Source of the DNA: Trueperaceae bacterium
GTDB taxonomy: Bacteria; Deinococcota; Deinococci; Deinococcales; Trueperaceae
Assembly: GCA_965215565.1 (NCBI GenBank)
Contig: CBDCDZ010000004.1
Location: 2,944,001-3,008,000 of the forward strand
Length of the DNA stretch: 64,000 nucleotides
Direction: 5' to 3'
The position numbers and the translations under genes were made by a program. Positions 33,424 through 53,483 of this stretch are shown here, one piece after another. Below the pieces are notes generated by a model. The model was not told the origin of the DNA. It saw only the letters and a list, made by a program, of their open reading frames with translations, and searched no databases. Every line of letters begins with the position of its first letter. Positions within the stretch are counted from its first letter, which is position 1.

Positions 33424-34287
33424 ATGCTAGCCAAGGTCATCTCCGCCGCTGTATTAGGTGTAGACGCATTCGAAGTGCAGATTGAGGTGGACATCTCGGG
33501 CGGTCTGCCCTGCGTGATGGTGGTGGGCCTGCCCGACGCCGCCGTGCAGGAGTCGCGCGAGCGGGTGCGCTCGGCGATTCGCAACGCGGGCTTGCCCTTT
33601 CCGTCCAGCCGAATCGTCATCAACTTAGCTCCAGCCGACGTGCGCAAAGAGGGTCCAGCCTTTGACTTGCCCATCGCGCTCGCCGTTTTAGCGGCGCAAG
33701 GGGTCATCCCGCAGGAGCGTTTAGAGAGCACCGTCATCAGCGGTGAACTCGCGCTAGACGGCGCGATTCGCCCGCTCAAGGGAGCCATCAACATCAGCCT
33801 CTACGCGGCGCAAGCGAGCTTAGAGCGGGCTATCGTCCCGCCCGAAAACGCCGCTGAAGCCGCTGTCGTGAGTGACGTCGAAGTCTACGCGCCTAAAACC
33901 TTGTTAGAAGCCGTCGAGTTTTTTCAGGGGCGGAGCTTGCTCACACCCACCACGCCCAAAGAGGTCAGCAGCAGTGAGCAGCACCTCGACTTATACGATA
34001 TCAAAGGGCAAGCCGCCGCCAAGCGCGCCTTGGAGATTTCAGCGGCGGGCGCGCACAACCTCCTGATGAGTGGTCCGCCGGGCTCGGGCAAGACGATGTT
34101 GGCGCGGCGTCTGCCGGGTATCTTGCCCGCACTAACCAGAGATGAAGCCATCGAGGTCACGCGCATTCACTCGACAGCGGGAACGCTCAAAGAGCGTGGG
34201 CTCTTGACCAACCCCGTCTTTCGCGCGCCGCACCACACGATTTCGGATGCTGGACTTATCGGCGGCGGTGTGAACCACCACAATTAA
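33424..34287 (+). pseudogene. comM: ComM/YifB Mg-chelatase-like AAA+ ATPase, 5' part only, interrupted by an insertion
   Basis: VGLPDAAVQESRERV, NLAPADVRKEG..FDLPIA, GPPGSGKTM, RAPHHTISDAGLIGGG, then VNHHN-stop. The expected PGE.SLAH/LFLDE half is absent from the window. Confidence 0.93.
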
Positions 34288-34338
34288 CGATATTCTTTCA
34301 CTATTCCCGTTACTGCTTCCACAAACTCTGGTACTGAC
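34269..34338 (+). repeat. Putative transposon end: TGT terminus plus three TnsB-site-like repeats
   Basis: CCACAATTAACGATATT (34278), TCACTATTCCCGTTACT (34298), CCACAAACTCTGGTACT (34319); period 20-21 bp. Confidence 0.55.
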
Positions 34339-34355
34339 TGTAGTATACTCCTCAG

Positions 34356-36254
34356 GTGGCAGTACCACCAATTAAGGCGATTAAGGAACTCAATAAGGAT
34401 AACGATTTTTTATGGCGTGCCCTCATGTTTGGCGAGGCGCATCTTAATTCAGGTCGGTCTACCGAGCCGCTCATCGACGTTTTCTTCGCGCCGTTAAAGG
34501 GAGAGCCCGAGCGACCGGATGAGGAAGGTTGTACGAACTATAAAGCCACGAGGTTAGTGCGCATTGGAGTAGGACAGCTCCCTCGTGTTCACGTCGGGTC
34601 CGTGTGGCGCGATGGCTTACTACGACCCCATCGGTCCCATAGATACTCGACGAAGCGCTTTAATGCACTCTCCATCGCACCGTGGACGACCTCTGTCATC
34701 CCCTTCGGTCAGAAACTAGGGCGATGGTGGAACACGTTCCATCTCGTTGCTGAAGACTATAAACAGAGCAAAGACTGGTCCAAACTATCCCAGACCAACT
34801 GCGTCGCCGTGTCGAGTCGGGGATGCGAACATAAGTTGATCATCCCGGTGGTTGAGCTGATCCGGTTTTATCATATCCAGACGAGCCGCCTCGCCGTGAT
34901 TGTCTTCACGCCCAATATCTATGACCTCAACGACATATGCAACCTGGAAAAAAGCAAGCCCGTCCGCAGGGAGGGTGACTCGGACGCGAACTACATTCAT
35001 ATGGTCCACCTCAGGCAACGGTTTTATAACGCTGACGCCTGGATCATCGCGAGATGGGTGTATTCGGAGTTTGCTAGGCGCAAAGCGCGGCAAATTCACA
35101 CCTCGCTTATGAAAGCCTCGAACGAAGGCCGTCCTACCTTTCCTGAGACTAGCTTTCCCTTCGTAGGTAAAACTGACCTCCGCGTCAGCGGTAGGTGGAT
35201 TAGAGGGGAAGACAGAGTATGGCGCTTTCTGGTCTACCGCATCCTTGAGTGCAGCGGTCCCTGGGAGTTTAGCGACCTCATGGTAGGGCGCGACAACGAC
35301 GGGCGTAGCGACGGGACTCCCGACGACGACAAACCCACAGCTTATCCTGGTGCACAAAAGACACCTCCCAACGAGGTCGACGAAGACGAAGGGGAAATCC
35401 GTAGCGACGAAGACCCCGACGCCAGCGTCGGTGACTTAGAGGTAGAGAGCGTCCTGAACAACTCGAGGTTCACGCCGTTCAAACACAAGGAACTTATCCG
35501 CGCGCCCAAGGAGCCAACGAAATACCGCAGCCGCAAACGTCCGATGCAGCCGGACGACAAACCTAATTGGAGCACAGGACCAGGAACATGGGGCGGAACG
35601 GAAACGAACCCGGTCGTGTTAGGTCCCGGAGGAGACGAAGTTTCTGAGGAGAAAGAAAAGAAAGAGACGGACGTCGAAGAGGGCAACGGTGCCGGTAAAA
35701 GCGAAAGGCAGAGCGTCCCGCCGTTGCCTGTGAGCTTTGAGACTATCGAGGGTGTTCTCAATATGCTAAGCGACAAAGCATACGGCGTTACGTTCAGCTT
35801 CATCGACCCGTATCGGCGCTCAAATCACCTGGACGCGGAAACGCCACAGGGAGAAACGGAGTCTAGTAATACCACCTTTTTCCCGACGGTAGCCGGTGGA
35901 AAAAAGCGCCGCTGGTCTTTCATCAAACGTAACCCAGACGAGATACGCGAAGCGCTTATCGTAAAACTTACGTTGGCAGAAAGGTCTTATTACCTCTTCG
36001 AGATGAGCCGCCGTCCTACAGAGGAAGGAAGGTACACGATGGCGCTTATCCGCAAAGGTGAGGGCGACGTTCTCGGAAGTTATACTCTGGATGCCATTCT
36101 GCAGACGTGCGTGCTAAACAGAGGGGGATGGCTCCAGGACAACGAATTGAGCGAACTGAGCCGACATTACCTGAAACACACCTCTAAGGACTATAAGCAA
36201 TACGCCGATAGGTTTTATAACCTCATGATCGATGAAAGCATGTGGATGGGGTAG
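34356..36254 (+). CDS. tnsE: TnsE-like Tn7 target-selector protein
   Basis: PVVELIRFY resembles the TnsE PQLELARALF motif; L.VSG...FLV..I...SG block; acidic linker; C-terminal domain with the TnsE_C-like pattern (REALIVKL..YYLFE..GGW..LKH..YADR). Recognised by eye. Confidence 0.62.
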   Translation: MAVPPIKAIKELNKDNDFLWRALMFGEAHLNSGRSTEPLIDVFFAPLKGEPERPDEEGCTNYKATRLVRIGVGQLPRVHVGSVWRDGLLRPHRSHRYSTKRFNALSIAPWTTSVIPFGQKLGRWWNTFHLVAEDYKQSKDWSKLSQTNCVAVSSRGCEHKLIIPVVELIRFYHIQTSRLAVIVFTPNIYDLNDICNLEKSKPVRREGDSDANYIHMVHLRQRFYNADAWIIARWVYSEFARRKARQIHTSLMKASNEGRPTFPETSFPFVGKTDLRVSGRWIRGEDRVWRFLVYRILECSGPWEFSDLMVGRDNDGRSDGTPDDDKPTAYPGAQKTPPNEVDEDEGEIRSDEDPDASVGDLEVESVLNNSRFTPFKHKELIRAPKEPTKYRSRKRPMQPDDKPNWSTGPGTWGGTETNPVVLGPGGDEVSEEKEKKETDVEEGNGAGKSERQSVPPLPVSFETIEGVLNMLSDKAYGVTFSFIDPYRRSNHLDAETPQGETESSNTTFFPTVAGGKKRRWSFIKRNPDEIREALIVKLTLAERSYYLFEMSRRPTEEGRYTMALIRKGEGDVLGSYTLDAILQTCVLNRGGWLQDNELSELSRHYLKHTSKDYKQYADRFYNLMIDESMWMG

Positions 36255-36397: not shown

Positions 36398-37588
36398 TTA
36401 CTCGTTCTCAAACGCAGTCACTTGAGCGTCTTCATCCGAGTCTATAAAGCGATTTGGGGAATCGAATAGAGCGAGATAAGGTGTGAACCGAAATCTTCGA
36501 TGACGTAAGTTCCCAGTAACTTCTTCTAGCACCCCGACTTTGATCAACTCGTTGATGGCTTTGCTAGCTGTGCCGTAGGAACAATCGAGGTAGTCCTGCG
36601 CAATCTGCACACTGATAATAGGCTGTTTGAAAAGTATGTCGAGCAGTCGTGAAGTATTCGCATTATCGCTTAGAACGAGGCGGAAGTCTTCTCTCATATT
36701 GAGTATCGCGCGAGCGGTCTCCGTAGCTTCTTTGCTTACCTCCTTGACTCCTGTGAGGAAGAACTTCAGCCATCCGTGCCAGTCACCGTCGTTACGGATC
36801 GCAGTGAGCCTATCGTAATACTGCGCCCTATGAGCTTTGAGATAATGGCTTAAATAGAGCAGCGGTTTGGCTAATACTTCTCTCTCGCAGAGAAGAAAAG
36901 TGATGAGCAGTCGTCCTACACGACCATTCCCGTCCGCGAAGGGGTGGATAGTTTCGAACTGCGCATGGGCGAGTCCGCATTTGATGAGTAGCGGAAAAGA
37001 GTCTTGACGATGGAGAAACTTCTCGAGATTGTCGAGAGCTTGATGCATTTCGTAGGGTGGAGGTGGAATAAAGTCCGCGCTGGCAAGACCAGCGCCCGGC
37101 GTCCCAATCCAATTTTGTGTTGTCCGGAATTCACCGGGCTGCTTGTTTCTACCCCTGACACCTGAGAGGAGCTTTTCGTGAATCTCTCTGATGAGACGGA
37201 GGCTTAAAGGAAGCTCTTCAAGGCGCTCCAATCCGTAGTTCATCGCGTTGATGTAATTCACGACCTCTTCCACATCCTGCGGATTTTCTGTCCCATCTTC
37301 ATCTACCTCGAAGCGTAGAACGTCTTCTAACGTGCTTTGTGTACCTTCGATCTGCGAACTCAGAACAGCTTCCTGACGCACATACATAGCAACAAACAAG
37401 TTGGGATTTGGCAGCGTCGAGGTTACGCCGTCAAGTCTAGCTAATGCTCTGTCCGCTAGTGAACTGAGTCGACCTATCTCGGAATCCAAATTTATTGCCA
37501 GATCAGGTGGAAGCGGATCAGGTATAAAAGCGGCATATCCAGTTGGTTGTTTCACATATCGCCCGGATTTTGAAATAAGGTTACTCAC
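36398..37588 (-). CDS. Fic family protein (class II, C-terminal wHTH)
   Basis: Fic motif HPFADGNGRVGR; inhibitory motif SSQIEG; AFIPDPLPP N-terminus. Confidence 0.93.
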   Translation of the reverse strand: MSNLISKSGRYVKQPTGYAAFIPDPLPPDLAINLDSEIGRLSSLADRALARLDGVTSTLPNPNLFVAMYVRQEAVLSSQIEGTQSTLEDVLRFEVDEDGTENPQDVEEVVNYINAMNYGLERLEELPLSLRLIREIHEKLLSGVRGRNKQPGEFRTTQNWIGTPGAGLASADFIPPPPYEMHQALDNLEKFLHRQDSFPLLIKCGLAHAQFETIHPFADGNGRVGRLLITFLLCEREVLAKPLLYLSHYLKAHRAQYYDRLTAIRNDGDWHGWLKFFLTGVKEVSKEATETARAILNMREDFRLVLSDNANTSRLLDILFKQPIISVQIAQDYLDCSYGTASKAINELIKVGVLEEVTGNLRHRRFRFTPYLALFDSPNRFIDSDEDAQVTAFENE

Positions 37589-37697
37589 CTTTCCAGTTTA
37601 TCTCAACTTTTTGAAATAAGACATCTTTGACGTTTACCTTATTTCATATTTTCCTTCTTTTGTGAAATAAGTAAGACTTTTATAGGTGCTTATTTCA
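37571..37697. promoter_or_regulatory. Three palindromic sites TGAAATAAG-N17-CTTATTTCA
   Basis: 37571-37605 (right arm TTTATCTCA), 37612-37646, 37663-37697; all have 17-bp spacers. Confidence 0.75.
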
Positions 37698-37770
37698 CGA
37701 CAGTAAAATAATGTTCTGCTTGAATGGTATTTCTAATGATTATTATTATAATCAGTCTTACGATGAGACA

Positions 37771-38022
37771 GTGGGAACTAAGGACCACTTCACTCTCTAC
37801 GAACGAGCGTTCCTGCGGGCAGTAGGCGCACGCATTGAAATGCTCAGGCATCGACGCGGGCTGGGTTTGGAGGACGTCGCTGCCTATACGGTTCATTCAG
37901 CCGAATGGTTAAGCGGGCTCGAGGCAGGTACACAAGAGCCGAGACTCGACGACCTCTTCCAGATCGCCAAAGCTTTGGGCACCAATCCTGGCAGCTTGGT
38001 CAGTGTCGAAGTCAAGCTGTAG
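37771..38022 (+). CDS. XRE-family HTH protein
   Basis: VGARIEMLR..GLGLEDVA...LEAGTQEPRLDDLFQIAKALG. Start uncertain (ORF track 37711). Confidence 0.75.
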   Translation: MGTKDHFTLYERAFLRAVGARIEMLRHRRGLGLEDVAAYTVHSAEWLSGLEAGTQEPRLDDLFQIAKALGTNPGSLVSVEVKL

Positions 38023-38074
38023 AACTCGGTCAGTTCTCATAGAAGGATAGAGCAACCCATGACACGATAGGGGC

Positions 38075-38326
38075 ATGTCGGAACGTGATTACCAACGTCG
38101 TATGGACCCGGAGTATGAGGCTTACCGCCGCAAGGTCGGGCAGAGGATCAAGGAACTGAGGGAGGACATGAATCTCAGCCAGGAGGCGTTCGGGGAAAGG
38201 GCCGGGCTCAACCGTACGCACGTGAGCTACCTGGAGGTTGCCCGGCAGGACCCGTCGCTTTTAACGCTTTTCAAGGTGGCGAAAGTGTTGGGGATGAGTG
38301 TGAGTGAGTTGCTCGAAGTGGACTAG
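38075..38326 (+). CDS. XRE-family HTH protein (controller-protein-like)
   Basis: GQRIKELR...LSQEAFGERAGLNRTHVSYLE...PSLLTLFKVAKVLG. Confidence 0.88.
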   Translation: MSERDYQRRMDPEYEAYRRKVGQRIKELREDMNLSQEAFGERAGLNRTHVSYLEVARQDPSLLTLFKVAKVLGMSVSELLEVD

Positions 38327-38415
38327 CGGCGAAGACGAAAGATTCACTGTCTGTGATTCAGTCGATAGGTAGACTAGGTGCCGCGAAAGATTTTTCAGCA
38401 CCACAGGACTTCGAC

Positions 38416-39228
38416 ATGATCATAGGCAAAGACTCCCCGTTTAGAAGAATTCCCCTCGAGCTTCATCGCAAGCAGAACATGTTCTTTGATGCCATTCGAG
38501 AAACTGTTGTCATAATCGATGTTAATTATCAAAGGCTGAGTAGAAATTTGTTTCACATGTCAGTCGAGCATGACCCAAGCGTACACGGTGGGTATGAGTT
38601 GGGTCTCTACCAAACCTCCACCGCCTTCTCGGACGCCTGGACCGTTATCGACTACACGAATCGCCTCAGAGGGTTGCTGGATAAGTTACCCGTGGCTAAG
38701 ATAAAGCGGTTCCCGCCCAAGCGTGTTTTCCTCGAAGAGACGGCGGACGTTAAACCGCTACGCAACGGTTTCCAACATCTCAACGAGCATATCAGCAAAG
38801 CTCCGGATGTCACGATGCCAGTATTGGGAGAGTTGAGCTGGTTTGCCCTTGCAGATGAAGAGGGTCGCTTCGGCTACTCATGCGTGATGCCCTCAGGTAT
38901 GCTTATTCCTAATCGCGGGTACTATCCGGTCAATCCTGCTGGCGCTACACTGAATGAGCGCGTCAATCTTGTCACGTTGCGGGTGGAAGACAAAGCGGTT
39001 TGTCTCAGCGATACAGTTGTTGCTGTAACTAAGCTCGTGCGGAGCTTCGAGGAACAGCTCGAGCGCCATCTCAACAAGCACTGGAGTAAAGATGAACCGG
39101 GCACATCCTTCGGCACGAATGTCATGGCGGGGATTCCTTTTGCTCGCGTAGATGAATCATGGCTTTTGCTCTTGCCACCAGAAGAGAAGGAAACTTACTC
39201 ACACTTTCCCTCTATACCCCCCGTGTAG
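38416..39228 (+). CDS. Hypothetical protein with HEPN-like Rx4H motif
   Basis: Helical N-terminal half ending in LRNGFQH. Start uncertain (ORF track 38353). Confidence 0.55.
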   Translation: MIIGKDSPFRRIPLELHRKQNMFFDAIRETVVIIDVNYQRLSRNLFHMSVEHDPSVHGGYELGLYQTSTAFSDAWTVIDYTNRLRGLLDKLPVAKIKRFPPKRVFLEETADVKPLRNGFQHLNEHISKAPDVTMPVLGELSWFALADEEGRFGYSCVMPSGMLIPNRGYYPVNPAGATLNERVNLVTLRVEDKAVCLSDTVVAVTKLVRSFEEQLERHLNKHWSKDEPGTSFGTNVMAGIPFARVDESWLLLLPPEEKETYSHFPSIPPV

Positions 39229-40670
39229 CTGTGACTATCCACCAGTACCCCTGAAGCGTCAAAGAGAGATGCTGTATCCCCACTGTTATTCCACACCGCT
39301 CCACCCGAGTTGGGCACGGTGATGATCTCCTCAGCACTCGCCTGGATACTTGGTAGCGCAAAGCTACGGCCACTTTCGTCCTCAATCGTCCACCCTGAGA
39401 AGTCTACAGACGCTAAAGCTTCAACTTGCACATACTCGTTGCCGTTGTCACTACCTGGCGGGTTGTAATATACGCAGACCACACGGGCTTGCCCGGTCGA
39501 CGGGGGTGGCGAGGACTCTGAAGGCGGCGCGGGTTGCACATCCGGCACGTCCTTCTCCGTCATCGCCTCATAGCTGCCATCGGCGAGGGCTGTGATAGTG
39601 ACCGCCCCATCTCGATCCGTCCGGTAGATGGTCGCCCCTACGCCCCTATAGAGGCTCAGTGCCTGCTCCGTAGGGTGTCCGTAAGGGTTATCTTCTCCAA
39701 CCCCTATTACGACTGTCTCCGGCTCCCAGGTCTGCACGCTCTCCAGGGTATCGCCGTTCTTTGACCCGTGGTGAGACGACTTATAGACCTCTACGCCACG
39801 CAGGTACTCAGGCGTATTCTCCAGCCACCACTCGAACTGCTCTCGCTCGGCGTCCCCTGTCAAGGCCGCTTCGAAGTCGCCGAAGTCGAGCACGACCCCT
39901 ATGCTGTTGCTGTTCCTCCCATAGCTCTCTATCAGCGGGGGCGGGATGATCTCTAGGCTCGCGTCACCTAAGCTGATGGTGCGACGGGTAGGCTCGAGCA
40001 CCTGGCTCTCTGCCTCTTCCACCGCCGCGAGCAGGTCGCGGTACACCCCGGTATCCGTACCCAAGCCGTTGTCCATGTAGAAGCGAGGTTTGTAGGCACG
40101 GATGACCGCGTCTAAGCCACCGATGTGGTCAGCATCGGGGTGGGAAGCGATGACGAGGTCGAGCGTTTTGATACCTAAGGCTTGGAGGTAGGGTAAAGCG
40201 TCGTCGTCCCAGCGCCCGCCGTCGTAGAGTACCGCCTGACCTTCTGTGCCAATCAGCAGGACACTGTCTCCTTGACCGACGTCTAGGAAGTGAATTTGAA
40301 TCTCTCCTACGGCTTCAGGTGCGTCGGGCTCCGGCTCGGTGATGGGATTGTTCTCCGGCGTAAACAGCGCACCAACGCTGAGGTCTTGATTCGCCTCTAG
40401 GGTGCAGCTCGAGCTCACCTGACCTTCACAGGCTCCACTCCAACTATTTATGGTATAGCCCGTATTGGGCACCGCCGTGAGTGTGACTGTGCTGACTTCG
40501 TCTAGCTCGAGCGTACAGCTACTGGGGCAGTCAAGGCTAGACTGAGCGGTGACGCGCCCATTGGCAGGTGGCTCGACGCTCAGCGTGTACGTCTCTGCCT
40601 CGGTCGTGGTGGGCTCTGCGCAGCCACTCAAGAAGAGAGAGCCGACCAGGAGCAACCATAGAGGTCTCAC
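39195..40670 (-). CDS. Lipoprotein: beta-repeat domain + ComEC/Rec2-type metallo-beta-lactamase nuclease + lamin-tail-like domain
   Basis: Lipobox LSG-C; FLDVGQGD, SHPDADHIGG, LTGDAE, HHGS, YGHP, YRTDRDG; C-terminal VWNNSGDTA. Confidence 0.88.
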   Translation of the reverse strand: MRPLWLLLVGSLFLSGCAEPTTTEAETYTLSVEPPANGRVTAQSSLDCPSSCTLELDEVSTVTLTAVPNTGYTINSWSGACEGQVSSSCTLEANQDLSVGALFTPENNPITEPEPDAPEAVGEIQIHFLDVGQGDSVLLIGTEGQAVLYDGGRWDDDALPYLQALGIKTLDLVIASHPDADHIGGLDAVIRAYKPRFYMDNGLGTDTGVYRDLLAAVEEAESQVLEPTRRTISLGDASLEIIPPPLIESYGRNSNSIGVVLDFGDFEAALTGDAEREQFEWWLENTPEYLRGVEVYKSSHHGSKNGDTLESVQTWEPETVVIGVGEDNPYGHPTEQALSLYRGVGATIYRTDRDGAVTITALADGSYEAMTEKDVPDVQPAPPSESSPPPSTGQARVVCVYYNPPGSDNGNEYVQVEALASVDFSGWTIEDESGRSFALPSIQASAEEIITVPNSGGAVWNNSGDTASLFDASGVLVDSHSYTGGIEGKCE

Positions 40671-40930
40671 AGCTCGATATCGCCCTTTGGACCTTTAGGC
40701 AAGTGCTCACGGCGTTCTCTAGCTGTCTCTCGTCTTTTGGCTGTTTCAGTGGTGTCGACGGTGAAGCTCACGCGGCTTGCTTTACCCTTGGACACCGCAT
40801 CTACGTTGAGCCCGTCGCCCTCTCGAGCTTCTTCTGGCAGCCATTCGCGAGGTGCGTTGAAGAGTTCGCCGTCAGGTCTTTCTAAGACAGCCCAGCCGTT
40901 GTCTTCGAAGCGTTCGATGATGAAATGCAT
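40667..40930 (-). CDS. DUF3006-like small protein
   Basis: IIERFE..WAVLE, LPEEAREGD; coupled to the MBL gene. Confidence 0.8.
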   Translation of the reverse strand: MHFIIERFEDNGWAVLERPDGELFNAPREWLPEEAREGDGLNVDAVSKGKASRVSFTVDTTETAKRRETARERREHLPKGPKGDIEL

Positions 40931-41063
40931 AGGATTCAGTGTATATGCTTATTCCCCGACACTCAGGAAATTACTAACTTCGCTACTTCTTGTGACTCGG
41001 ATAAGGAAAGCATGTGTAATTGGGCTCTGGTGTGAAAATCTATATATCTCTAATTTTAGCTGA

Positions 41064-41315
41064 ATGCTTAAATGTTCAAACACTCATACTCCCCACATCA
41101 AATCTTGGCGGTGCTCTTTGCCTCTACCTCTGCAAGACGAAAAACTAGCACAAACCCATAAGCTCAAGCTCGCTCAGGGCTGGAAGCGCGTGGCAACTCT
41201 CCTTACTCCTGAGGAACATCGCAATCTCAAGCTGCGAGCAGTAGCAACCGGAGAGGACATGAGCGATATCTTGCGGGGCCTTGTGCTGCGGTATCTCGAG
41301 GAGAAGCCCTCGTGA
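41064..41315 (+). CDS. Small ribbon-helix-helix-like protein (true start probably further downstream)
   Basis: KRVATLLTPEEHRNLKLRAVATGEDMSDILRGLVLRYL; stop overlaps the helicase GTG. Confidence 0.55.
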   Translation: MLKCSNTHTPHIKSWRCSLPLPLQDEKLAQTHKLKLAQGWKRVATLLTPEEHRNLKLRAVATGEDMSDILRGLVLRYLEEKPS

Positions 41316-44254
41316 TTGGCGACATCGCGTCTTCTCTGTCTCAAGAAACGCTCGAAGTCCCCGTGCTTCCGAACGCACGGCAAACCAATTCCGCTCAAGA
41401 GCAAGCTGTCACCACCACTGAAGGACCGCTCCTTATCATCGCCGGACCCGGCTCGGGCAAGACGTTCACGCTCGTCGAACGCATCGTCCATCTGATTACG
41501 GAGAAGGGCGTCGCGCCAGAAGAACTCTTAGTCGTCACCTTCACAGACAAAGCCGCCGCCGAACTCACCACCCGCGTCTCGAACCGCCTCAGCGAGTGTG
41601 GCGTCAAGTTCAACCTTAACGAGATGTACCTAGGCACGTTTCACAGCCTCTGCCTGCGCTGGCTCGAGCGCTACCGCGAATTCACGCGCTTAAAGCGCTC
41701 CTTTACCCTCTTCGACGAGTTCGACCAGCAATACTTCCTCTACAGCAACCTTGCTGCATACGAAACGCTTCCCAACGCCGAGTTGCTCCTCGGCACGTCC
41801 AGACAGAGCCGTTGGTACAAAAGCCGCAACCTCTTAGGCTGGCTCAACACCGTGAGCGAGGAAGCGCTCGATGTCGCTGAGTTGCAGGCGGCACCCGAAG
41901 CTGAGGTGCGCGTCCTCGGTCAGGCGGCGGCGCTCTACTACCAGCAGCTCGAGGAAGCCAATGCGCTCGACTTCTCGACTATTCAGCGCGAGACACTCAA
42001 CCTCCTGCGCACCTATCCCGAGGTCCGAGGCGAAATCCAAGCTCAACTGCGCTACCTCATGGTGGACGAATATCAAGACACCAATACCATCCAAGAGGCG
42101 CTGCTCATGCTCCTGACCGGGGAGGAGGCGAACCTCTGTGTGGTCGGCGACGACGACCAGGGTCTGTACCGCTTCCGAGGCGCGACCATCCGCAACATCC
42201 TGGAGTTCCCGGAGCGCTTTCCCGACAAGAGATGCACCCAGATCAAGCTCGCCACCAACTACCGCTCGCCTCCTGAGGTCATCGACTTCTGTGGCGACTG
42301 GATGCGTGAGCAGGACTGGACCTACGGTGACCTTAGCTTTCGCTACCCTAAACGCACCCAAGCACGTGAGGGTACCTTCCCGGACACGCCGACGGTGGTG
42401 TCAGTCACCGCTGACCTGAAGCGCTGGCATCAGGAGGTCAAAGCCTTCCTGCACGCACTCCGTGACGAGGGACATCTCACCGACTGGAACCAGGTCGCCT
42501 TCTTGTTCCGCTCAGTTAAGAACAAGAAGGTTCGCGCTTTAGCCGACTACCTCGAAGCGGAAGGCATCCCCGTCCACGCGCCCCGCGCCAACCAGTTCTT
42601 TGACCGTGAAGAGATACGCCTCATGTTGGGTGCGCTGATGTTCCTCTTCCCCCAGTTCCCCCACGTCCGAGCGTGGCGCGACGACGTGCAGCTCGATATC
42701 TGGACCTACTACGACGAGCAGTGCGTGCGCCCCTTCGCGGCGGCGCTACGCCAGCCGGAGAATGCTGACTTACTCGCCTGGGCAAGAACCGTTGCCAAGC
42801 GTCACCTTCAGATGAACGAGAACGCCGACTACGGCTTCGCCGGGCTCTTCTACCAACTCCTGCGTTTCCCGCTCTTCAGCCGCTACTTGGACGAAGAGCT
42901 GCTCAAACGCGAAGGGGCGAGCGACACCCGCGCGATGCGCAACCTGGCGGTCTTTTCACAGCTCCTCAACAAGTTTGAGTACCTCCACCACCTCACCATC
43001 CTGACGAAAGACCACCTCGAGAGCAACCTGCGGACCCTCTTCAACCAGTTCCTGCGCTACCTCAAAGACGGCGGCATCGGTGAGTACGAGGGCGACGAGG
43101 CAAAAGCTCCTTCCGGCAGCGTCTCCTTCTTGACCATCCACCAGGCGAAAGGACTCGAGTTTCCGGTCGTCGTCGTTGGCTCGCTCGACGCTGTGCCGCG
43201 TAAGCAGTACAGCGACTTGGACGAGCGCTTAGAGCCCTATCTCTCGCGCCCCCCGTTTGAGCCGCTCCAATACACCAAGTTCTATGATTTCCGGCGGCTC
43301 TACTACACCGCCTTCTCGCGGGCACAAAATCTCCTCGCCCTCGCCTGCCCGATTAAGGTTGGGACCCATCCCTCCCCCTCGAAATACTTCCGAGACCAGG
43401 TCGAAGCGCTCCCAAGCTGGCGTGACACCTCGCTCGAGCACATTCCCTTAGAGACGATCCGAACAGCCAACCTCAAGCACGACTATTCGTTTACCTCGCA
43501 CCTCTCAATCTTCGAGACTTGCGCCGAGCAGTACCGCTTCTTCCGCGAACTCGCGTTCACGCCCGTGCGCACCAATCCCATCCTCTTCGGAACGCTCGTT
43601 CATCAGACCATCGAGGACATCCACAAGACGGTTTTGCGCGGCGAGGAGCAGAGGCTCAGCGAAACGCAGATTCAAGCTTGGTTCGACACGAACTACGCTT
43701 ACTTATCTAAGAAGGAGCGTGTCTACCTCACCTCGCTCATCAAAGGAATCGCGCTCGGTCATGTGATGCGCTACTACGACCGCTACCGGGGCGACTGGCA
43801 GCACGTGCGCGAGGCGGAGGTGGACGTGTCGCTCGTCAAGGACGACTACATCCTCTCGGGCACTATTGACCTCATCCAGGGTGAGAGAGACACGGTTGAG
43901 ATCGTGGATTTCAAGAGCGAGAAGAAGCCGGATGTGAACCACCCCGATGACCGTGACAAGATCGATCGCTACAGGCGGCAGCTTGACGTCTACGCTCACA
44001 TTGTCGAGGTGCGGACCGGGCTCGAGGTCAGTAAGACGCACCTCTACTACACGGGCGTCGAAAACGGCAACCCGCAGATCAGCTTTGACAAAAACACCAA
44101 ACGCCTAGAACGAACCGTAGAGCGCTTCGGCACGATTGTTCAGCGCATCGAAGACAAAGACTTTCGCATTCCCGAGCGCCCTATCAAGCAGTGCGGAGCG
44201 TGCGACATGCGCCACTACTGCGACGCCAAAAACTGGAGATTTTTAGATGATTGA
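41312..44254 (+). CDS. UvrD/REP (SF1) helicase fused to a C-terminal PD-(D/E)xK nuclease with Cys cluster
   Basis: AGPGSGKT, VDEYQD, VGDDDQGLYRFRGA, TIHQAKGLEF; GTIDLI..IVDFKS; C..., CGAC-x5-C. Confidence 0.92.
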   Translation: MIGDIASSLSQETLEVPVLPNARQTNSAQEQAVTTTEGPLLIIAGPGSGKTFTLVERIVHLITEKGVAPEELLVVTFTDKAAAELTTRVSNRLSECGVKFNLNEMYLGTFHSLCLRWLERYREFTRLKRSFTLFDEFDQQYFLYSNLAAYETLPNAELLLGTSRQSRWYKSRNLLGWLNTVSEEALDVAELQAAPEAEVRVLGQAAALYYQQLEEANALDFSTIQRETLNLLRTYPEVRGEIQAQLRYLMVDEYQDTNTIQEALLMLLTGEEANLCVVGDDDQGLYRFRGATIRNILEFPERFPDKRCTQIKLATNYRSPPEVIDFCGDWMREQDWTYGDLSFRYPKRTQAREGTFPDTPTVVSVTADLKRWHQEVKAFLHALRDEGHLTDWNQVAFLFRSVKNKKVRALADYLEAEGIPVHAPRANQFFDREEIRLMLGALMFLFPQFPHVRAWRDDVQLDIWTYYDEQCVRPFAAALRQPENADLLAWARTVAKRHLQMNENADYGFAGLFYQLLRFPLFSRYLDEELLKREGASDTRAMRNLAVFSQLLNKFEYLHHLTILTKDHLESNLRTLFNQFLRYLKDGGIGEYEGDEAKAPSGSVSFLTIHQAKGLEFPVVVVGSLDAVPRKQYSDLDERLEPYLSRPPFEPLQYTKFYDFRRLYYTAFSRAQNLLALACPIKVGTHPSPSKYFRDQVEALPSWRDTSLEHIPLETIRTANLKHDYSFTSHLSIFETCAEQYRFFRELAFTPVRTNPILFGTLVHQTIEDIHKTVLRGEEQRLSETQIQAWFDTNYAYLSKKERVYLTSLIKGIALGHVMRYYDRYRGDWQHVREAEVDVSLVKDDYILSGTIDLIQGERDTVEIVDFKSEKKPDVNHPDDRDKIDRYRRQLDVYAHIVEVRTGLEVSKTHLYYTGVENGNPQISFDKNTKRLERTVERFGTIVQRIEDKDFRIPERPIKQCGACDMRHYCDAKNWRFLDD

Positions 44255-46112
44255 GCAACCTTTGATTCAGAAATACGATGAGCGCGTGGAAGAGATGAAG
44301 TTTGAGCCCATCAAGGGCTATCCGATGCTGAACTGGCGAGGCAAACGACCTTTCACCAGCACCCAGTATTACCCGGCGCAGATCAAAGAGCGGCACGGGG
44401 AGCCGGTAGACGGTTGGATGAACAAGATTTACTGGGGCGACAATCTTCAGGTCATGAGTCACCTACTCAAGGAGTATCGAGGCAAAGTTCAACTTATTTA
44501 TATCGACCCTCCGTTTGATTCAAAGGCTGAATATAGAAAGGCAATATCGCTTTACAAAAAAGATATACGTAATGAGCTGACAGCGTTTGAGGAAAAACAA
44601 TATACAGATATATGGAGTAACGACGAGTATTTGCAGTTTATGTACGAACGTCTTGTTTTAGTTCGTGAATTGATGTCATCCACCGCAACTATATGGGTGC
44701 ACTGTGATTGGAGAAAGTCTGCAAGTCTTAAATTGATGCTTGACGAAGTTTTTGGCAAGTCACAATTTCGAGGACATGTAGTTTGGCGCAGTATGACATC
44801 GAGTGGCTTTAAAGGAAAAACTAGCTTAGGAAAAAGTCACGATGACCTTCTTTACTACTCTAAGAGCGAGTCAGCTTTTACGTACAATCCAGTTTTGATA
44901 CCCTATAGCAAAGAGTATTTAAGTGAGAGATTCAGTAAAATCGACGGAAATGGAAGACGCTTCAAAGATGAAAAAATAGGTACGGCGACTTCTGAAAAAA
45001 CTATAAAGCGTTTAGAAGAAGAAGATCGAATTTATATTACTTCAAATGGTACTAAGCGAGTTAAGCACTTTCTTGATGAAGCAGAGGGCTATCCAGCAGA
45101 TAATATCTGGACAGATATATCCGGTGAAAACTCGCAATCGAGTGAACAGACAGGCTATCCTACCCAGAAACCCGTCGCTCTATTAAAGAGAATAGTATCG
45201 ATGACGTCAAATCCAGGCGACATAGTCTTTGACTGTTTCATGGGCTCCGGTACAGCCCAAACTGTTGCTATGAAGTTGGGACGCCGTTTTTTAGGCGCGG
45301 ATATCAATCTAGGGGCTATTCAAACAACGACTAAGCGTCTTTTGAACGTAGCTGAATTGCTCGAGCCAGCCGAGCAACAATTTATAGCAGAGGAAACGGT
45401 CCCTTCTATCTACTACACTGGGTTCGAAGTTTATAACGTTAATCACTATGACGTGTTTCGTAATCCTCTAGAGGCGCGAGACCTTCTCCTCGAGGCGTTG
45501 GAGATCAATAAGCTCCCTCAGGGTCATCTCTTCGACGGCGAGAAAAACGGGCGCATGGTCAAACTTATGCCGGTCAACCGCATCGCCACCCGCGCCGACC
45601 TGACCGAGTTGATCAGCGGCTTCAACTATAAAGACCTTCAGAAGCGTCAAAATGAACACCCCACCAAGCCTGTCGAGAAGGTCACGCTCATTTGCATGGG
45701 TCATGAGCCCGACCTTGCTGCTCAGCTCAAAACTGAGATGCATCCCTTCGTCTTAGATGTCGAGGTCGTGGATGTGCTACGAGACAAGAAGGAGCTAACC
45801 TTCAAGCGCGATAGTGAAGCGAAGATCAATGTCGAGAACGGCACGCTTAGTATTGAGCGCTTTTACCCTATGAACCTCTTGCAGAAGCTCAGCTTAGAAA
45901 CTGAGAAGGTCGAGGACTGGCGCGAACTGGTCGAGTCGGTGATGATCGACTGGAACTACGACGGCGTGGTGCTCGAGCCCAAGACGGTGGACGTACCTGA
46001 TAAGAACGAGCTGGTAAGGGGTTTCTATCCCATCCCCGAGGACACTGGCACCATCCGTGTCAAGATCACCGACGTGCTCTCCGAGTCTTTAGAGGTGACC
46101 GTCAATGGCTAA
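44247..46112 (+). CDS. mod: Type III RM-like DNA methyltransferase (Mod, beta class)
   Basis: YIDPPF precedes YPTQKP and DCFMGSGT; overlaps both neighbours by 8 bp. Confidence 0.88.
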   Translation: MIEQPLIQKYDERVEEMKFEPIKGYPMLNWRGKRPFTSTQYYPAQIKERHGEPVDGWMNKIYWGDNLQVMSHLLKEYRGKVQLIYIDPPFDSKAEYRKAISLYKKDIRNELTAFEEKQYTDIWSNDEYLQFMYERLVLVRELMSSTATIWVHCDWRKSASLKLMLDEVFGKSQFRGHVVWRSMTSSGFKGKTSLGKSHDDLLYYSKSESAFTYNPVLIPYSKEYLSERFSKIDGNGRRFKDEKIGTATSEKTIKRLEEEDRIYITSNGTKRVKHFLDEAEGYPADNIWTDISGENSQSSEQTGYPTQKPVALLKRIVSMTSNPGDIVFDCFMGSGTAQTVAMKLGRRFLGADINLGAIQTTTKRLLNVAELLEPAEQQFIAEETVPSIYYTGFEVYNVNHYDVFRNPLEARDLLLEALEINKLPQGHLFDGEKNGRMVKLMPVNRIATRADLTELISGFNYKDLQKRQNEHPTKPVEKVTLICMGHEPDLAAQLKTEMHPFVLDVEVVDVLRDKKELTFKRDSEAKINVENGTLSIERFYPMNLLQKLSLETEKVEDWRELVESVMIDWNYDGVVLEPKTVDVPDKNELVRGFYPIPEDTGTIRVKITDVLSESLEVTVNG

Positions 46113-48684
46113 GGCGATGAACCTAGATTTCACCTTCTTTGCCGAGCTACACCGCTTCTACCAAGAGAAACGCGGCATGATCCGTAAGCATTACCGGGAC
46201 TTGACGAAGCGCTTTCTGGATTACAACGACCCCGAGAACGCGGGCGCGTTCTTGCGGACGCCCCAGTTCGAGGCGCTGGAGATGTACGTCTTCCTCAAGG
46301 AGTACCTAGACAACGCTAAGCTCCACGAGGTCTTCCGCGAGTGGGCGGAGTCCGAAGGTCGTTTCGAGGGACGCAGCCCCTACGTCCAGGGACTCTTTGA
46401 GGAGCGCGAAAGCTATGAGCCCGTCTTCAAGCAATTAGAAGACTTCGCCCGCAGCTACCCGAACTACATCTTCGCCCTGACGATGGGCACGGGTAAGACG
46501 ATCCTGATGGCAACGTGCATCTTCTATGAATTCCTGCTCGCCAACAAGTTCCCTAAAGACCCTCGCTACTGCCACAATGCACTGGTATTCGCGCCCGACA
46601 AAACAGTTCTCGGCTCGCTGCGCGAGATTCAGACCTTCGACATGAGCAAAGTCGTGCCGAGCGAGTACCAAGCGTTCCTCGCCTCGCACATCCAGTTCCA
46701 CTACTTAGACGAGGCGGGCACGAGCCTCAACACCCTGGACGGCTCGCGCTTCAACCTAATCGTCTCGAACACGCAGAAGATCATCCTAAAGCGCCAGACG
46801 AAGGAGAAAGGCGGGGCGGACAAGCTTTTCGAGAGCGGCCCAAGCACTTACGAACGCGGCGGGGTGTGGGACGGTCTGAGCGACCTCTACGACTTCTCCC
46901 AGGATGACACCGCGCTGACCTCCAATCAGCGATTCGAGAAGTTGCGCCGCTTGCCACAACTCGGCGTCTACATCGACGAGGCGCACCACGCCTTTGGCAA
47001 CGACCTTGCCAAGGACATGGGTCTCAAGAAGACCAAGACGAGCCTGCGCACGACGGTGGACGAACTCGCCGCTAACTTAGAAGCAAAAGGGTCTTTCGTC
47101 GTCGCCTGCTACAACTTCACCGGCACCCCATACGTCGGCTCGCAGGTGCTGCCCGAGGTGGTCTACGCCTACGGGCTCAACGAGGCGATTCGGCGCAGTT
47201 ATCTCAAGCAAGTGGCGATCAGCGGCTATAGCAACACCAAGAGCGAGGAATTTGTGCAGCTTGCAGTGGACGACTTCGTTAAACGGACCCAGGGGCTCGA
47301 GCCCGAGGGGATGCGCCCCAAGCTCGCCTTCTTCGCTGCCACCATCGACGAACTGACCCAGGACCTCCGCCCGGCGGTGGAAGAAGCTATCGCTAAGCAC
47401 GGCTTCGACCCGAGCACCATCCTCGTCAATGTGGGTGACCCGAAGAAGACCAGCAATGACGACCTGCGCGAGTTCAACCGGCTCGACACGCCCGCCTCGA
47501 CCAAGCAGTTCATCCTGCTCGTCAACAAGGGGCGCGAGGGCTGGAACTGCCGTTCGCTCTTCGGCGTCGCGCTCTTCCGCAAGCCGAAGTCTAAAATCTT
47601 TGTCCTCCAGGCGACCATGCGCTGCCTGCGCAGCATTGGCGAGGTGCAGCACACCGGGCACGTCTACCTCAGCGAGGAGAACTACCAGATTCTGGAGGAC
47701 GAGTTGCAGCAGAACTTCAGGGTCAGCGTCCAAGAGGTTCAGAAGGCGGGCAAAAGCAAGGTGCGCGTGCCCGTCAAGGTGATGCCGCCGCCCGTCAAGC
47801 TCAAGCTCAAGCGGGTGCGCAGGCTCTTCACCATGCGCGACAAGACGCTTTCCGAAGGGATCGACTTCGAACTTCACAAAGCGGACCGCGACAAGTACCG
47901 GCTCATCCGCTCACAGCAGCAGGGGCTCACGCCGGGCGACAAGGGCGTGCAAAAGGAGGACCTATCCCACCTACGGACGCAGTGTACCTTCACCGCGCTG
48001 ACGCTCGTCGCCGAGGTCGCCAAGTACCTTAACCGCTCACCTATCGAACTCGAGGAGCTGCTGGCGTCATCACGTGAAGGTATGACGACGCTACTCAAAG
48101 CCGTCAACGAGTTCAACGAGCTTCTCTACGATTGGGTGATTCCTCGCCTCTTCGGGGAACTCTACGACGTGCGCACCTATACTGATGATGAGCCTTACGA
48201 GGTCGAACTCATCAAGCTGCCGCCCGCACCTAGAGACCACTACCTCGTGTCGGCGGACGAGGAGCTGGTCGCGCTTCGCAGCGATGTCGGTCCTGAGCAG
48301 GCCGAGAAGAGCTTTCACCTGGACACCTACTGTTTTGACTCCAAACCCGAGCGAGACCTCTTCTGGCAGCTCCTCAACAGTGGCAAGATCAAGAAGCTCT
48401 ACTTCACGGGGATGCTGACCCACGGGCAGACCGACTTCTTCGTGCAGTACATTGATCCTGACTCACACGCCATCCGCTCCTATTACCCCGACTTCCTCGT
48501 TCAGAAAGAGGACGGCACGTATGTCATCGTCGAAGTCAAAGGCGATAACAAAATCGACGATCCCGTCGTTTTGGCTAAGCAGCGTTTTGCCGAGCAGATG
48601 GCGGAGGCGAGCGGGATGACCTATCGGATGGTCAAGGGGAGCGACAGTGCATCAGAGGTCGGCTTATCGCAGACGCTCAACTAA
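46105..48684 (+). CDS. res: Type III RM-like restriction subunit (SF2 helicase + PD-(D/E)xK nuclease)
   Basis: MGTGKT, IDEAHH, REGWN, YYPDFLV...IVEVKG. Confidence 0.88.
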   Translation: MAKAMNLDFTFFAELHRFYQEKRGMIRKHYRDLTKRFLDYNDPENAGAFLRTPQFEALEMYVFLKEYLDNAKLHEVFREWAESEGRFEGRSPYVQGLFEERESYEPVFKQLEDFARSYPNYIFALTMGTGKTILMATCIFYEFLLANKFPKDPRYCHNALVFAPDKTVLGSLREIQTFDMSKVVPSEYQAFLASHIQFHYLDEAGTSLNTLDGSRFNLIVSNTQKIILKRQTKEKGGADKLFESGPSTYERGGVWDGLSDLYDFSQDDTALTSNQRFEKLRRLPQLGVYIDEAHHAFGNDLAKDMGLKKTKTSLRTTVDELAANLEAKGSFVVACYNFTGTPYVGSQVLPEVVYAYGLNEAIRRSYLKQVAISGYSNTKSEEFVQLAVDDFVKRTQGLEPEGMRPKLAFFAATIDELTQDLRPAVEEAIAKHGFDPSTILVNVGDPKKTSNDDLREFNRLDTPASTKQFILLVNKGREGWNCRSLFGVALFRKPKSKIFVLQATMRCLRSIGEVQHTGHVYLSEENYQILEDELQQNFRVSVQEVQKAGKSKVRVPVKVMPPPVKLKLKRVRRLFTMRDKTLSEGIDFELHKADRDKYRLIRSQQQGLTPGDKGVQKEDLSHLRTQCTFTALTLVAEVAKYLNRSPIELEELLASSREGMTTLLKAVNEFNELLYDWVIPRLFGELYDVRTYTDDEPYEVELIKLPPAPRDHYLVSADEELVALRSDVGPEQAEKSFHLDTYCFDSKPERDLFWQLLNSGKIKKLYFTGMLTHGQTDFFVQYIDPDSHAIRSYYPDFLVQKEDGTYVIVEVKGDNKIDDPVVLAKQRFAEQMAEASGMTYRMVKGSDSASEVGLSQTLN

Positions 48685-48749
48685 GAAGGACTAAGATTAC
48701 AAGAGCAGAATGGACCATCGACGCTACATTGACGAGATAAGCTAACACC

Positions 48750-50225
48750 ATGAGCGTACAGGTCTACTTCTCTGACTATTTTCAGATCGACCCTGAGGTC
48801 ATAGAAGAATACGGCGCTTTAGACGTTTCACTCATCAACGACCTCCCCCTGTTCATCGATCCGTTCCTCTTGTTCGAGAGTGAAAAGAAAGAATATAAAG
48901 AGCTCCATCAGGAGCTGATTGACTACGTCATCTTTCTCAAAGACGCTGCGCTCAGCGGACCACTGGCAGAAGCCAGATTCAGGTCATGGTTTTACTTCCC
49001 CGAAGTCAAACAAAATTGGCTTGGGTTTAGCAAAAAGGGTAACCAGGGTGCAGGGCTCGGGAAAGATTTTGCGGAAGCGTTAAGTCGAAATCTAAGGGAT
49101 AGGTTTAGCGACTTTGGAGAGGAATCCGTTTCGCAAAGTCCCCACCTCGAGAAGCTCTGCCTCGTCAAAGAAGGGGTCGGGCGCGACAACATCAGCGACC
49201 TTACGGCTAACATCATTAAGCGCTATCTCTTGGAGTATACGCAGACGTTCGCACAACAGCACCTGCGGTCTGACCAGCGCCGCGCGTTTCCTGTGGATAG
49301 GGTGTCTTTTGACTACAACTTGAAGCGTTGGAAACGCGGGCGCTTCGAACTCCCAGTTTTCAACCGCGACTTCGTCCTGCTCACGCCTCGCGATATTCTG
49401 ACGAAAGAAGACACGTGGATTAACCGCACCGACTTGGGTGAATCGTTCGTAGAGATCGCCACCTCACTTCCTAATCCTCAGCTACGACAAGAGCTGAGCG
49501 ACATGCTTATCCAGGCGCTCAGGGCGAACCAAACTGTTTCTAAACGCGATGTGCAAGAGATGGCTACAGACCTAACCCTAAAGTACCCTGAGATTCTCGA
49601 TCACTTCATTCGATGGAAAGAGGAGCACGGGGAGAAGGCGAAGGCGATCAGTGCTGAGCGCGTCGGTGAGGTCGAGGACGTGTTCATTCGTGCAGTCAAA
49701 GGCTTCGTCGAACAGTTAGATAGCGCTACCGAGTTTTACCAAACTAGCGACGCGACCTTCGGTGAAGCGCTGAGAAAAGCACATTTCCTGAAAGACGTGA
49801 TTGAGAACAAAGACGGCTACCGCCTCTTCTACCAAGGTAACAAGCCCATCACAAGAGAGAGCGACCTACAGATTCTCTTTCGCCTCACTTGGGAGGGAAC
49901 CTCCTCCGACGTGAACCGGGAGGTGAACAACGGTCGTGGACCTGCTGATTTCACGGTTTCACGCGGCAGCCGCGATAAAACTGTTGTGGAGTTCAAGCTC
50001 GCCTCCAACAACAAACTGAAACAAAACCTTCAGAACCAGACGAAGATTTACGAACGGGCGAGCAACGCGAAACGCAGTGTCAAGGTGATCGTTTATTTCA
50101 ACAGAGCTGATCTGGCTAAAGTGCAGCGCGTCCTTGAGGACTTGAAGATGGTTGGTGATGAAGGCGTCGTGCTTATTGATGCAACAAGCGATAAACCTTC
50201 CGCTTCGAAAGCAAAGGAGTCGTGA
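48750..50225 (+). CDS. Hypothetical protein with C-terminal restriction-endonuclease-like motif
   Basis: REVNNGRGPADF...VVEFKLA...QTKIY pattern. Confidence 0.65.
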   Translation: MSVQVYFSDYFQIDPEVIEEYGALDVSLINDLPLFIDPFLLFESEKKEYKELHQELIDYVIFLKDAALSGPLAEARFRSWFYFPEVKQNWLGFSKKGNQGAGLGKDFAEALSRNLRDRFSDFGEESVSQSPHLEKLCLVKEGVGRDNISDLTANIIKRYLLEYTQTFAQQHLRSDQRRAFPVDRVSFDYNLKRWKRGRFELPVFNRDFVLLTPRDILTKEDTWINRTDLGESFVEIATSLPNPQLRQELSDMLIQALRANQTVSKRDVQEMATDLTLKYPEILDHFIRWKEEHGEKAKAISAERVGEVEDVFIRAVKGFVEQLDSATEFYQTSDATFGEALRKAHFLKDVIENKDGYRLFYQGNKPITRESDLQILFRLTWEGTSSDVNREVNNGRGPADFTVSRGSRDKTVVEFKLASNNKLKQNLQNQTKIYERASNAKRSVKVIVYFNRADLAKVQRVLEDLKMVGDEGVVLIDATSDKPSASKAKES

Positions 50226-50247
50226 AGCTGTGCTCGCACAGCTTCAC
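50222..50247 (+). terminator. Hairpin closing the RM operon
   Basis: GTGAAGCTGTG-CTCG-CACAGCTTCAC; no U tract. Confidence 0.5.
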
Positions 50248-50315
50248 CTAAGGGGGTGATTCTTCATGTCGCACCTCTATTTGGGTTACATAATACCCCA
50301 ATTTACCCTTTTCGG

Positions 50316-50344
50316 TTGACGCTTTCTCAAAAAAGTCCTATTAT
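50316..50344 (+). promoter_or_regulatory. Sigma70-type promoter (leaderless transcript)
   Basis: TTGACG-N17-TATTAT, 7 nt before the ATG at 50352. Confidence 0.7.
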
Positions 50345-50351
50345 CTAATGT

Positions 50352-51110
50352 ATGAGTGAAAAAGCTACACCTGCTGACTTTCGTAACGCATTTTTTCGTC
50401 GCTACTCTCCAATATGTGCTTCACAAATTGTGAGAGTTCTCGATTACAGTGCTTCGAGAGCTCGTGCACTCTGTGAAACAGAATATCCAACTGGGAACTA
50501 TGGGGTAGCCCAGGGCATAAACCGTTGGCAGCTTGTTGATGAACATCTCCGCAGACAAGCGTTACTTGATGGTGATGTAATTGTAGAGACAAGAGATTTT
50601 GGAGAAGCTAAACTCCTTGATGGTGAAGAAAAGATCAATAGCTTTGTGCTACTCCGATCCAATGAAGTTGGATTAGTTCTTTGCAAAGTAAGACGCAACT
50701 CACCAATGCCAAGCGCATCTTTAGTTCGTAACTACATGACCGCTCTAGGGTTTGCTTCAGAACCTCTATTTCCTATCCCGTACTACCTAGAAGCTAGGTA
50801 CGGAGATAGTATACCTAAGCATGATCTTAAAGCGTTGTTCATAGGCAGATACTGGCTTGACGAAGAAGACGAGGCTCAAGCAACTATTGAGAAGGCCGAT
50901 ATCGTTGTTCTAACTCATGATGGCAAGAGTATATTTGGTCATGTGTGTACTGATCTATATTCTTATGCTGATACAGCTTCAGTTGATACCATGTACGTGC
51001 ATGGTGAAGAGTTGCCTATAGCATTCAGAATTCCTGAACGCGCTCCTGAGACAGAAACAGAAATCCTTCCCATCAATCTGCGTAGCGATGACAATAAGGG
51101 TAAAAATTGA
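50352..51110 (+). CDS. Hypothetical protein, putative toxin partner of the ImmA/IrrE protein
   Basis: 252-aa low-GC ORF ending 1 nt before the HTH-peptidase start. Confidence 0.65.
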   Translation: MSEKATPADFRNAFFRRYSPICASQIVRVLDYSASRARALCETEYPTGNYGVAQGINRWQLVDEHLRRQALLDGDVIVETRDFGEAKLLDGEEKINSFVLLRSNEVGLVLCKVRRNSPMPSASLVRNYMTALGFASEPLFPIPYYLEARYGDSIPKHDLKALFIGRYWLDEEDEAQATIEKADIVVLTHDGKSIFGHVCTDLYSYADTASVDTMYVHGEELPIAFRIPERAPETETEILPINLRSDDNKGKN

Positions 51111-51111
51111 T

Positions 51112-52275: not shown

Positions 52276-52536
52276 ACGCCCCTTTTGTTGTAAGAATATT
52301 CGATTGTCAGGCTTCTGTCACTGCCTCTAAACGCCCAATATGGTCAGCGTCTGGATGAGACGCGATAACGAGGTCTACTTGTTCGACACCGACGCTGCGC
52401 AGATACTCAAGCACTTGGTCGTCTCATCCACCGTTCCTCTTATGATTGCCATACCTATAAGCTAAAGAAACCTGTCTTACAGAACGCTGGCTTGAGACCT
52501 ACTCTTTGCAGCCAGCGTAGTAGTGGCTGACCCCGG

Positions 52537-52836: not shown

Positions 52837-52926
52837 CCGCCCATCATGGCGAGCCCTCCTCCATCTTTGGACGCCCTTATAGTGCGTGTTGTAGAGTAGG
52901 GCAGGTCATAACACATGGGAGGTTTT

Positions 52927-53412: not shown

Positions 53413-53483
53413 AGGACGAGAGAAGACAATCTTTCGAGGTCTTTAGGGAACGACAAAACCATTCACCTGTCATGGGAGGACAT

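Follow-up and report, generated by a model that had tools for sequence, protein, structure and literature searches.

In a Deinococcota genome, a gene for a 632-aa protein begins just inside a putative transposon end that interrupts comM. From the 64,000-nt stretch of DNA analyzed here (the window), the original prediction read this gene as a TnsE-like target selector uncoupled from tnsABCD, and suggested that the pairing of comM with TnsE may define a distinct Tn7 family. The locus raises the question of what this selector does and what brought the element to comM. Plain coordinates below are window positions, and G000:C4 coordinates are positions on contig C4 of the host genome, G000; other G numbers denote genomes of relatives and L numbers denote loci.

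The element in comM and others in the host genome

The element is 46,339 bp long and runs 16.6 kb past the window, with GGCGG on both sides, and the 3′ half of comM resumes at G000:C4:3024608 (Table 1). The tnsA, tnsB, tnsC, and tniQ genes are uninterrupted and run inward from the tnsA-side end, 11–16 kb past the edge of the window; they and the tnsE-like gene belong to one element. The element has the attributes of a Tn7-like transposon, namely tnsA/B/C, tniQ, TG..CA ends with repeated sites, and a 5-bp duplication. The tnsE-like ORF is therefore part of a complete transposon and merely lies outside the tns operon. Its predicted placement at a Tn7-type end in a broken comM was confirmed by the TG end, the phased sites, and the GGCGG duplication. 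The claim that it is uncoupled from tnsABCD held for its position outside the operon and failed where it took tnsABC–tniQ to be missing. comM was intact in both same-genus genomes searched.

Table 1. Features of the comM element, in window positions unless a locus or contig is named.
Feature	Position	Strand	Remarks
comM 5′ half (YifB family)	33424..34268	+	broken in GGG loop after PHH motif
5-bp target-site duplication GGCGG	34264..34268	+	second copy at G000:C4:3024608-3024612, beyond window
tnsE-side transposon end	34269..34335	+	terminal TG, three 15-bp putative TnsB sites (binding predicted)
Putative TnsB sites	34280-34294, 34300-34314, 34321-34335	+	20–21 bp phase
-10 hexamer TATACT	34344..34349	+	6 nt ahead of GTG; likely leaderless promoter
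tnsE-like gene, 632 aa	34356..36254	+	TnsE C-terminal domain (residues 458–628), preceded by an acidic linker and an N-terminal part with a predicted OB fold
Cargo within window	36398..64000		Fic (SoFic-like), HTH regulators, metallo-beta-lactamase-fold lipoprotein, UvrD/PD-(D/E)XK helicase
Cargo within window, continued	36398..64000		type III R-M-like pair, RmrA-like protein, start of 3129-aa RHS-like ORF
tniQ, 539 aa	L001:11346-12965	-	beyond window
tnsC 312 aa, tnsB 658 aa, tnsA 232 aa	to L001:16496	-	beyond window
tnsA-side transposon end	G000:C4:3024607		four similar sites, first also at +12

A 321-nt contig from another study's marine metagenome spans the junction from the comM tail through the transposon end into the start of the gene, with 22 differences. 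In run X1, a comM contig (window 34101-34268) ends exactly at the insertion point, and the depth of about 26–30 falls to 11 within the element; this hints weakly that empty and filled sites coexist in one sample.

The cargo between 36398 and 52275 is of defence type: SoFic, the type III R-M-like pair, a UvrD–nuclease fusion, and RmrA-like and PDC-M36A-like proteins. The region from window position 56661 to G000:C4:3012367 holds the 3129-aa RHS-like ORF and a HINT/EndoU tail, with an IS3-type gene between the two; the RHS label rests on its sequence and on neighboring RHS-repeat and EndoU ORFs.

A second element of the same kind (G000:C4:3661479-3713598, 52 kb) splits comEC with a 4-bp duplication, GCGC. 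Its orientation relative to the gene is opposite, its tnsA, tniQ, and tnsE are frameshifted, and its TniQ is 58% identical to that of the comM element. GC skew did not place the comM and comEC elements on replichores. Near-copies of exported/lipoprotein-like cargo genes occur in both elements (window 53472-56276 and G000:C4:3700709-3703445). In addition, G000:C4:1548889-1558085 (L090) holds a decayed type I-E CAST-like element with tnsA, a broken tnsB, tnsC, a split casA, cas7, cas5, and cas6, and a tniQ-like gene on the other strand. The 32-nt spacer of its two-repeat mini-array matches 24 of 32 bases, its best non-self match on the contig, 36 bp past the element end in a gene that we take from its motif to be ruvC-like.

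Identity and probable promoter of the tnsE-like gene

A structure model of the 632-aa protein, built from 136 sequences, had a mean pLDDT of 88.9. The top seven Foldseek rows were all TnsE C-terminal domains (prob 1.00, E 0.002–0.013). The C-terminal domain aligned with the solved TnsE structure at Z 14.1 (rmsd 2.8, 138 aligned; next row 6.2), with 14% identity to Tn7 TnsE over the aligned domain. The family profile aligned end to end with Tn6022 Orf4/TnsE (hhalign 98.6%, 537 columns), and hmmsearch with this profile recovered Orf4 at E 1e-23 (Z 1000). The Orf4 sequence was taken from an A. baumannii plasmid record, in which we recognized it by its place beside sulP and uspA, presumably the gene order of Tn6022. 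Sequence-profile searches of the ORF itself against Pfam, NCBIfam, and PDB returned nothing useful; Pfam TnsE_C matched 7 of 24 homologues weakly, none above the cut-off, and did not match the ORF itself. The full-length alignment and the modeled fold thus place the ORF in the TnsE family as a distant member, as had been proposed. The N-terminal part reached only Z 4.4–5.4 against PriB/SSB, a weak OB-like signal that fits the account of TnsE N-terminal folds in section 11 of PMC10293859.

The family is large (895 representatives at E up to 0.001), and one named Deinococcus plasmid record contains both TnsE and TnsB homologues. The PVVELIRFY motif, the TATACT hexamer 6 nt from the GTG, and the 632-aa length are all present as claimed. 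PVVELIRFY is a conserved helix start, and P164, E167, R170, and Y172 of this region are at least 90% conserved among the 136 aligned sequences. TnsE proteins bind the beta clamp and 3′-recessed DNA and direct insertion into conjugating plasmids, and PVVELIRFY is the candidate clamp-binding segment here. As for the proposed disordered linker, the acidic linker was found, and low confidence (pLDDT <50) is limited to residues 427–453 and 491–494.

The ORF begins 87 bp inside the element end. In the database, the gene is called from a start 23 codons downstream (609 aa), but homologues align from residue 1–4, which supports the GTG start at 34356. Across the genome, a TANNNT hexamer ends 6 nt ahead of 256 of 6300 candidate starts, compared with 50–81 at each distance from 9 to 20 nt, so the spacing seen here is not due to chance. 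About 30% of ORFs in the host phylum have an adjacent -10 box, according to section 11 of PMC12340547, and the host genome shows the matching peak at 6 nt; the leaderless -10 box of tnsE follows the usual promoter style of its host phylum. Among 14 Deinococcota homologue starts, the box was found at two, both in G000; the paralogous tnsE at G000:C4:3661563 has the same motif 7 nt ahead of its start. A sigma-70 scan requiring a -35 box found no promoter upstream of tnsE, as expected for a -10-only promoter. The predicted leaderless promoter of its own, beside the last putative TnsB site, is probable. Judging from the sequence, its upstream contacts would overlap the third putative TnsB site. 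tnsE would be transcribed separately from the tns operon, and TnsB bound at that third site would dampen the promoter; since the comM half points the same way, its transcription may also read through into tnsE.

Known systems, relatives, and attachment sites

Regarding the suggested new Tn7 family, the layout is already known: comM together with a distal, opposite-strand tnsE has been published for Tn6022, where remote TnsE homologues are encoded close to the left end, in the opposite orientation (PMC10293859, section 11). The proposal of a distinct family is not supported. A passage in a review (PMC11406308) describes TnsE as almost universal among comM-targeting elements, and one in PMC8649781 places some Deinococcus–Thermus elements in the Tn6022 clade. 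Like Tn6022/AbaR, our element has the same gene order, a tnsE of the same protein family in the same distal position, and the same comM loop, orientation, and 5-bp duplication. Unlike Tn6022/AbaR, it has no detected TnsF and is inserted 1 bp off; its tniQ is not short and has no tnsF partner in the operon; its TniQ carries a predicted winged-helix and PD-(D/E)XK extension; its TnsB and TnsC are 36–42% identical and fall outside the TnsF clade; and its host belongs to Deinococcota. With Tn7, it shares TnsA/B/C, TniQ-family and TnsE selectors, and the TnsE C-terminal fold, whereas, in contrast to the tnsABCDE order and glmS target of Tn7, tnsE is outside the operon, TnsC is of TniB type (PF05621), and the target, comM, is disrupted. 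Insertion into competence genes is shared with type I-B1 CASTs and Tsy elements, but neither the crRNA nor the TnsF-like recombinase proteins of those systems were found here. What is new, as far as the papers searched show, is that the known homing factor, TnsF, is missing and that relatives occupy a lipA site described in none of them.

Homologues were detected in 15 of 301 sampled Deinococcota genomes, in 2 of 128 genomes of the host's own family, and in 14 of 125 genomes of a second family; a weak match in G184 and a fragment in G099 are left unassigned. Fourteen of the 15 full-length copies, which were inspected by eye, lie about 200 bp or less from a TG-terminated end, consistent with the proposed association with Tn7-type ends, and the other lies about 0.75 kb in. 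Their targets were comM (6), comEC (2), comF (1), and others (6); target names besides comM, comEC, comF, and lipA are tentative readings of translated motifs, and comF is a weak assignment (E 7e-4, fragment). Within comM, the GGG loop was used in G000, G146, and G274 and a second site in G057, G080, and G130. Matching 5-bp duplications were read for 10 Deinococcota elements. Among side observations, a fragment in G334 sits at the same comF position, comM is cut at codon 48 in G020 (G020:C1:1161335-1164541, fragment), and in G064 (G064:C68:76010-97160) comEC is interrupted by an end of another type.

A wider genome scan used 41 closer homologues and one peptide pattern and yielded 71 loci, a sample that leans to one branch. 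A lipA C-terminal motif lay just upstream in 48 of the 71 loci (within L092–L157, proteobacterial branch; label checked on one locus), and the comM 5′ half lay upstream in four, three of them at the GGG loop. The element end was 32–44 nt from the Y-H codons in 47 of the 48 lipA loci, at or near the last lipA codons, and a 5-bp duplication was present in 10 of 15 checked. The lipA attachment site was not found in the open literature searched, although specialist reviews and some supplements could list such elements; the supplement files of PMC10293859 that were searched do not mention lipA, lipoyl, Deinococc, or Truepera. tnsABC–tniQ converge on tnsE where they lie within 10 kb of it, except in L138, in which tnsE follows tniQ in the operon direction; in L151, tnsE faces tnsC with no tniQ match between them.

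Searches for TnsF were negative across the group. One query found nothing in G000, G146, G274, G342, and G057 (0/5 genomes, with working positive controls), and another found nothing in G368, G467, G340, and G343 (0/4, with a working self control); the weight of absence is limited in G340, G342, G343, G368, and G467, for which completeness is not stated. G341, with locus L133 also at the comM loop, lay outside this search. Likewise, the 632 six-frame ORFs of the two G000 elements contained no match to TnsF, although the same query detects TnsF down to 22–24% identity in other loci. In all, seven genomes with elements at the comM loop yielded no TnsF, and five of the seven elements lie 1 bp from the TnsF-guided site. 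Nor was a TnsF-like gene found behind tniQ in 12 Deinococcota relatives examined, whose TniQ tails differ, or behind the short TniQ (297–391 aa) in the 20 loci inspected for it, of which 18 are lipA insertions. A selector may be too divergent for the TnsF queries or may have been lost after insertion. G040 has an ordinary-looking 309-aa tyrosine recombinase without zinc fingers behind tniQ.

In Acinetobacter (14 elements examined, from 29 matches in 201 genomes), 11 elements had TnsF, nine of them at the GGG loop in one register, 11 nt before the conserved P codon. The other three lacked TnsF, and two of these were at the loop, 1 bp away. Among TnsF-free elements, the register was 12 in G000, G340, G467, and G368, 10 in G274, and 9 in G146; G342, read from the tnsE side, matches G000. 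In trees (FastTree, midpoint root; rows under 250 aa for TnsC, 290 aa for TniQ, and 500 aa for TnsE dropped), TnsF-bearing rows formed their own starred clade, with the TnsC and TniQ of G000 outside it. The lipA rows formed one starred clade in the TniQ tree, together with two unassigned rows, and two groups in the TnsC and TnsE trees. TnsF-free comM rows were ungrouped in every tree (5–6 changes for 6–7 rows, on long branches). These topologies are compatible with target reading by TniQ and with an early origin of comM as a target, but prove neither, and the TnsF-free elements are likely a sister group of Tn6022.

Proposed target selection without TnsF

In Tn7 and Tn6022, TnsE together with TnsABC inserts without sequence preference into replicating or conjugating DNA. 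The Tn6022 TnsE is functional, giving random insertions into F (PMC11014353, sections 15–16), and homing to comM requires TniQ and TnsF and runs without TnsE (PMC11014353, section 16; PMC10293859, section 12). We consider it probable that tnsE of the intact 46-kb element likewise directs a plasmid or replication-fork route and that TniQ finds comM without TnsF. On the tnsE side, TniQ would read conserved coding DNA that lies about 33–47 bp from where the element is inserted, namely the R-x-P-H-H codons of comM and, in the largest branch, the R-S-S-Y-H codons of lipA; TnsE would serve the plasmid route and TniQ the chromosomal site, and the Tn6022 branch would have acquired TnsF later. We give this reading, in which the TnsF-free group is real, lipA is an undescribed attachment site, and homing is by TniQ alone, a somewhat better than even chance. 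In Tn6022, DNA 40–50 bp upstream of the site was needed in an assay without TnsE (PMC10293859, sections 12 and 14). The comEC element is a counterpoint, since its related TniQ shows that this TniQ type is not always found at comM.

The extension of the TniQ of the comM element is predicted to combine a MarR-like winged helix (Z up to 7.8) with a PD-(D/E)XK fold (Z 9.2), from a weak model (mean pLDDT 56) in which only residues 356–536 were interpreted. Atlas matches to it were all under 0.9, and a metagenome scan with a TniQ alignment found one distant locus. The site can be explained without this extension, because the element of G368, complete at 12.6 kb, sits at the same base although its sole candidate selectors are TnsE and a TniQ of 312 aa.

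The comM elements might instead be stranded Tn6022-like elements that reached the loop with a TnsF since lost or acting in trans, leaving TniQ without specificity and the lipA branch with another, unseen partner. The loop and orientation are those of TnsF-guided elements, TnsF-free comM rows are scattered across the trees, and TnsF is essential in Tn6022 (PMC10293859, section 12), whose TniQ without TnsF gave no high-frequency comM insertion (PMC11014353, section 16). However, the register differs from that of TnsF in six of six elements measured on the tnsA side, the TnsF-free elements fall outside the starred TnsF clade, and intact elements such as those of G000, G342, and G368 have no TnsF remnant, so we regard this account as unlikely. 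It is less likely still that homing involves the distal TnsE-like protein, acting by itself or as partner to a short TniQ. TnsE is the only other conserved candidate selector, the conserved target codons lie on the tnsE side in both lipA and comM, and many TniQs have no extension at all. Against this, lipA tracks the TniQ tree better than the TnsE tree, TnsEs at the same comM site are as low as 20–24% identical to this one, and Tn6022 points the other way, with random TnsE insertions and comM homing without TnsE (PMC11014353, section 16). We give similarly little credence to the broader form, in which a widespread TnsF-free group homes to lipA, comM (several sites), comF, and comEC using a short TniQ and an end-encoded TnsE-like specificity partner.

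Insertion could also be untargeted, through the TnsE route, with insertions in competence genes surviving while natural transformation cures the others. The comEC copy in G000 fits this account, as do the nine of 15 Deinococcota elements in comM, comEC, or comF at five different sites, with six elsewhere; it cannot, however, produce the same base position in hosts of three phyla or the narrow spacing at lipA, a gene with no part in competence. It is improbable overall and disfavored for the comM loop. RNA guidance by a CRISPR system in trans appears very remote. G000 has the decayed CAST-like element and two arrays, and type I-B1 CASTs target comM and comEC by spacer, as described in parts of PMC9881144, but no cas gene was found among the element ORFs scanned, and 12 host spacers plus the mini-array spacer gave a best match of 18/32 against four flanks.

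If TniQ does act as the reader, a TniQ of about 310–350 aa finding a conserved gene alone would make Tn7 targeting by protein only possible with a very compact module. The distal-TnsE design extends far beyond Acinetobacter Tn6022, and comM is apparently reachable without TnsF, which suggests that TnsF joined an older TniQ-guided system. Such a module could be useful for studying attachment-site switching (comM to lipA, comF, or comEC), and it could serve site-specific integration in environmental Proteobacteria and in Deinococcota. Under the TnsE-partner reading, no earlier TnsE would have had a part in homing to a specific sequence.

A motif shared by lipA and comM was considered but not established: the lipA weight matrix scored best at 38 nt in four of seven comM flanks, at chance-level scores and in flanks that are homologous. 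L054 (G193:C101:1-7000) carries a CRISPR array and a cas6-like gene beside tnsC–tniQ–tnsE, with no tnsAB in the stretch. In G057, G080, G130, G228, G258, G040, G104, and G088, TniQ is fused to a C-terminal paired helix-turn-helix, which we presume resembles the IS630/Tc1 DNA-binding domain; these TniQs form a single starred clade, to which the elements at the second comM site and at comF belong. Finally, P0169 and P0172 are TniQ relatives without the N-terminal TniQ core that keep the winged-helix/nuclease-fold tail.
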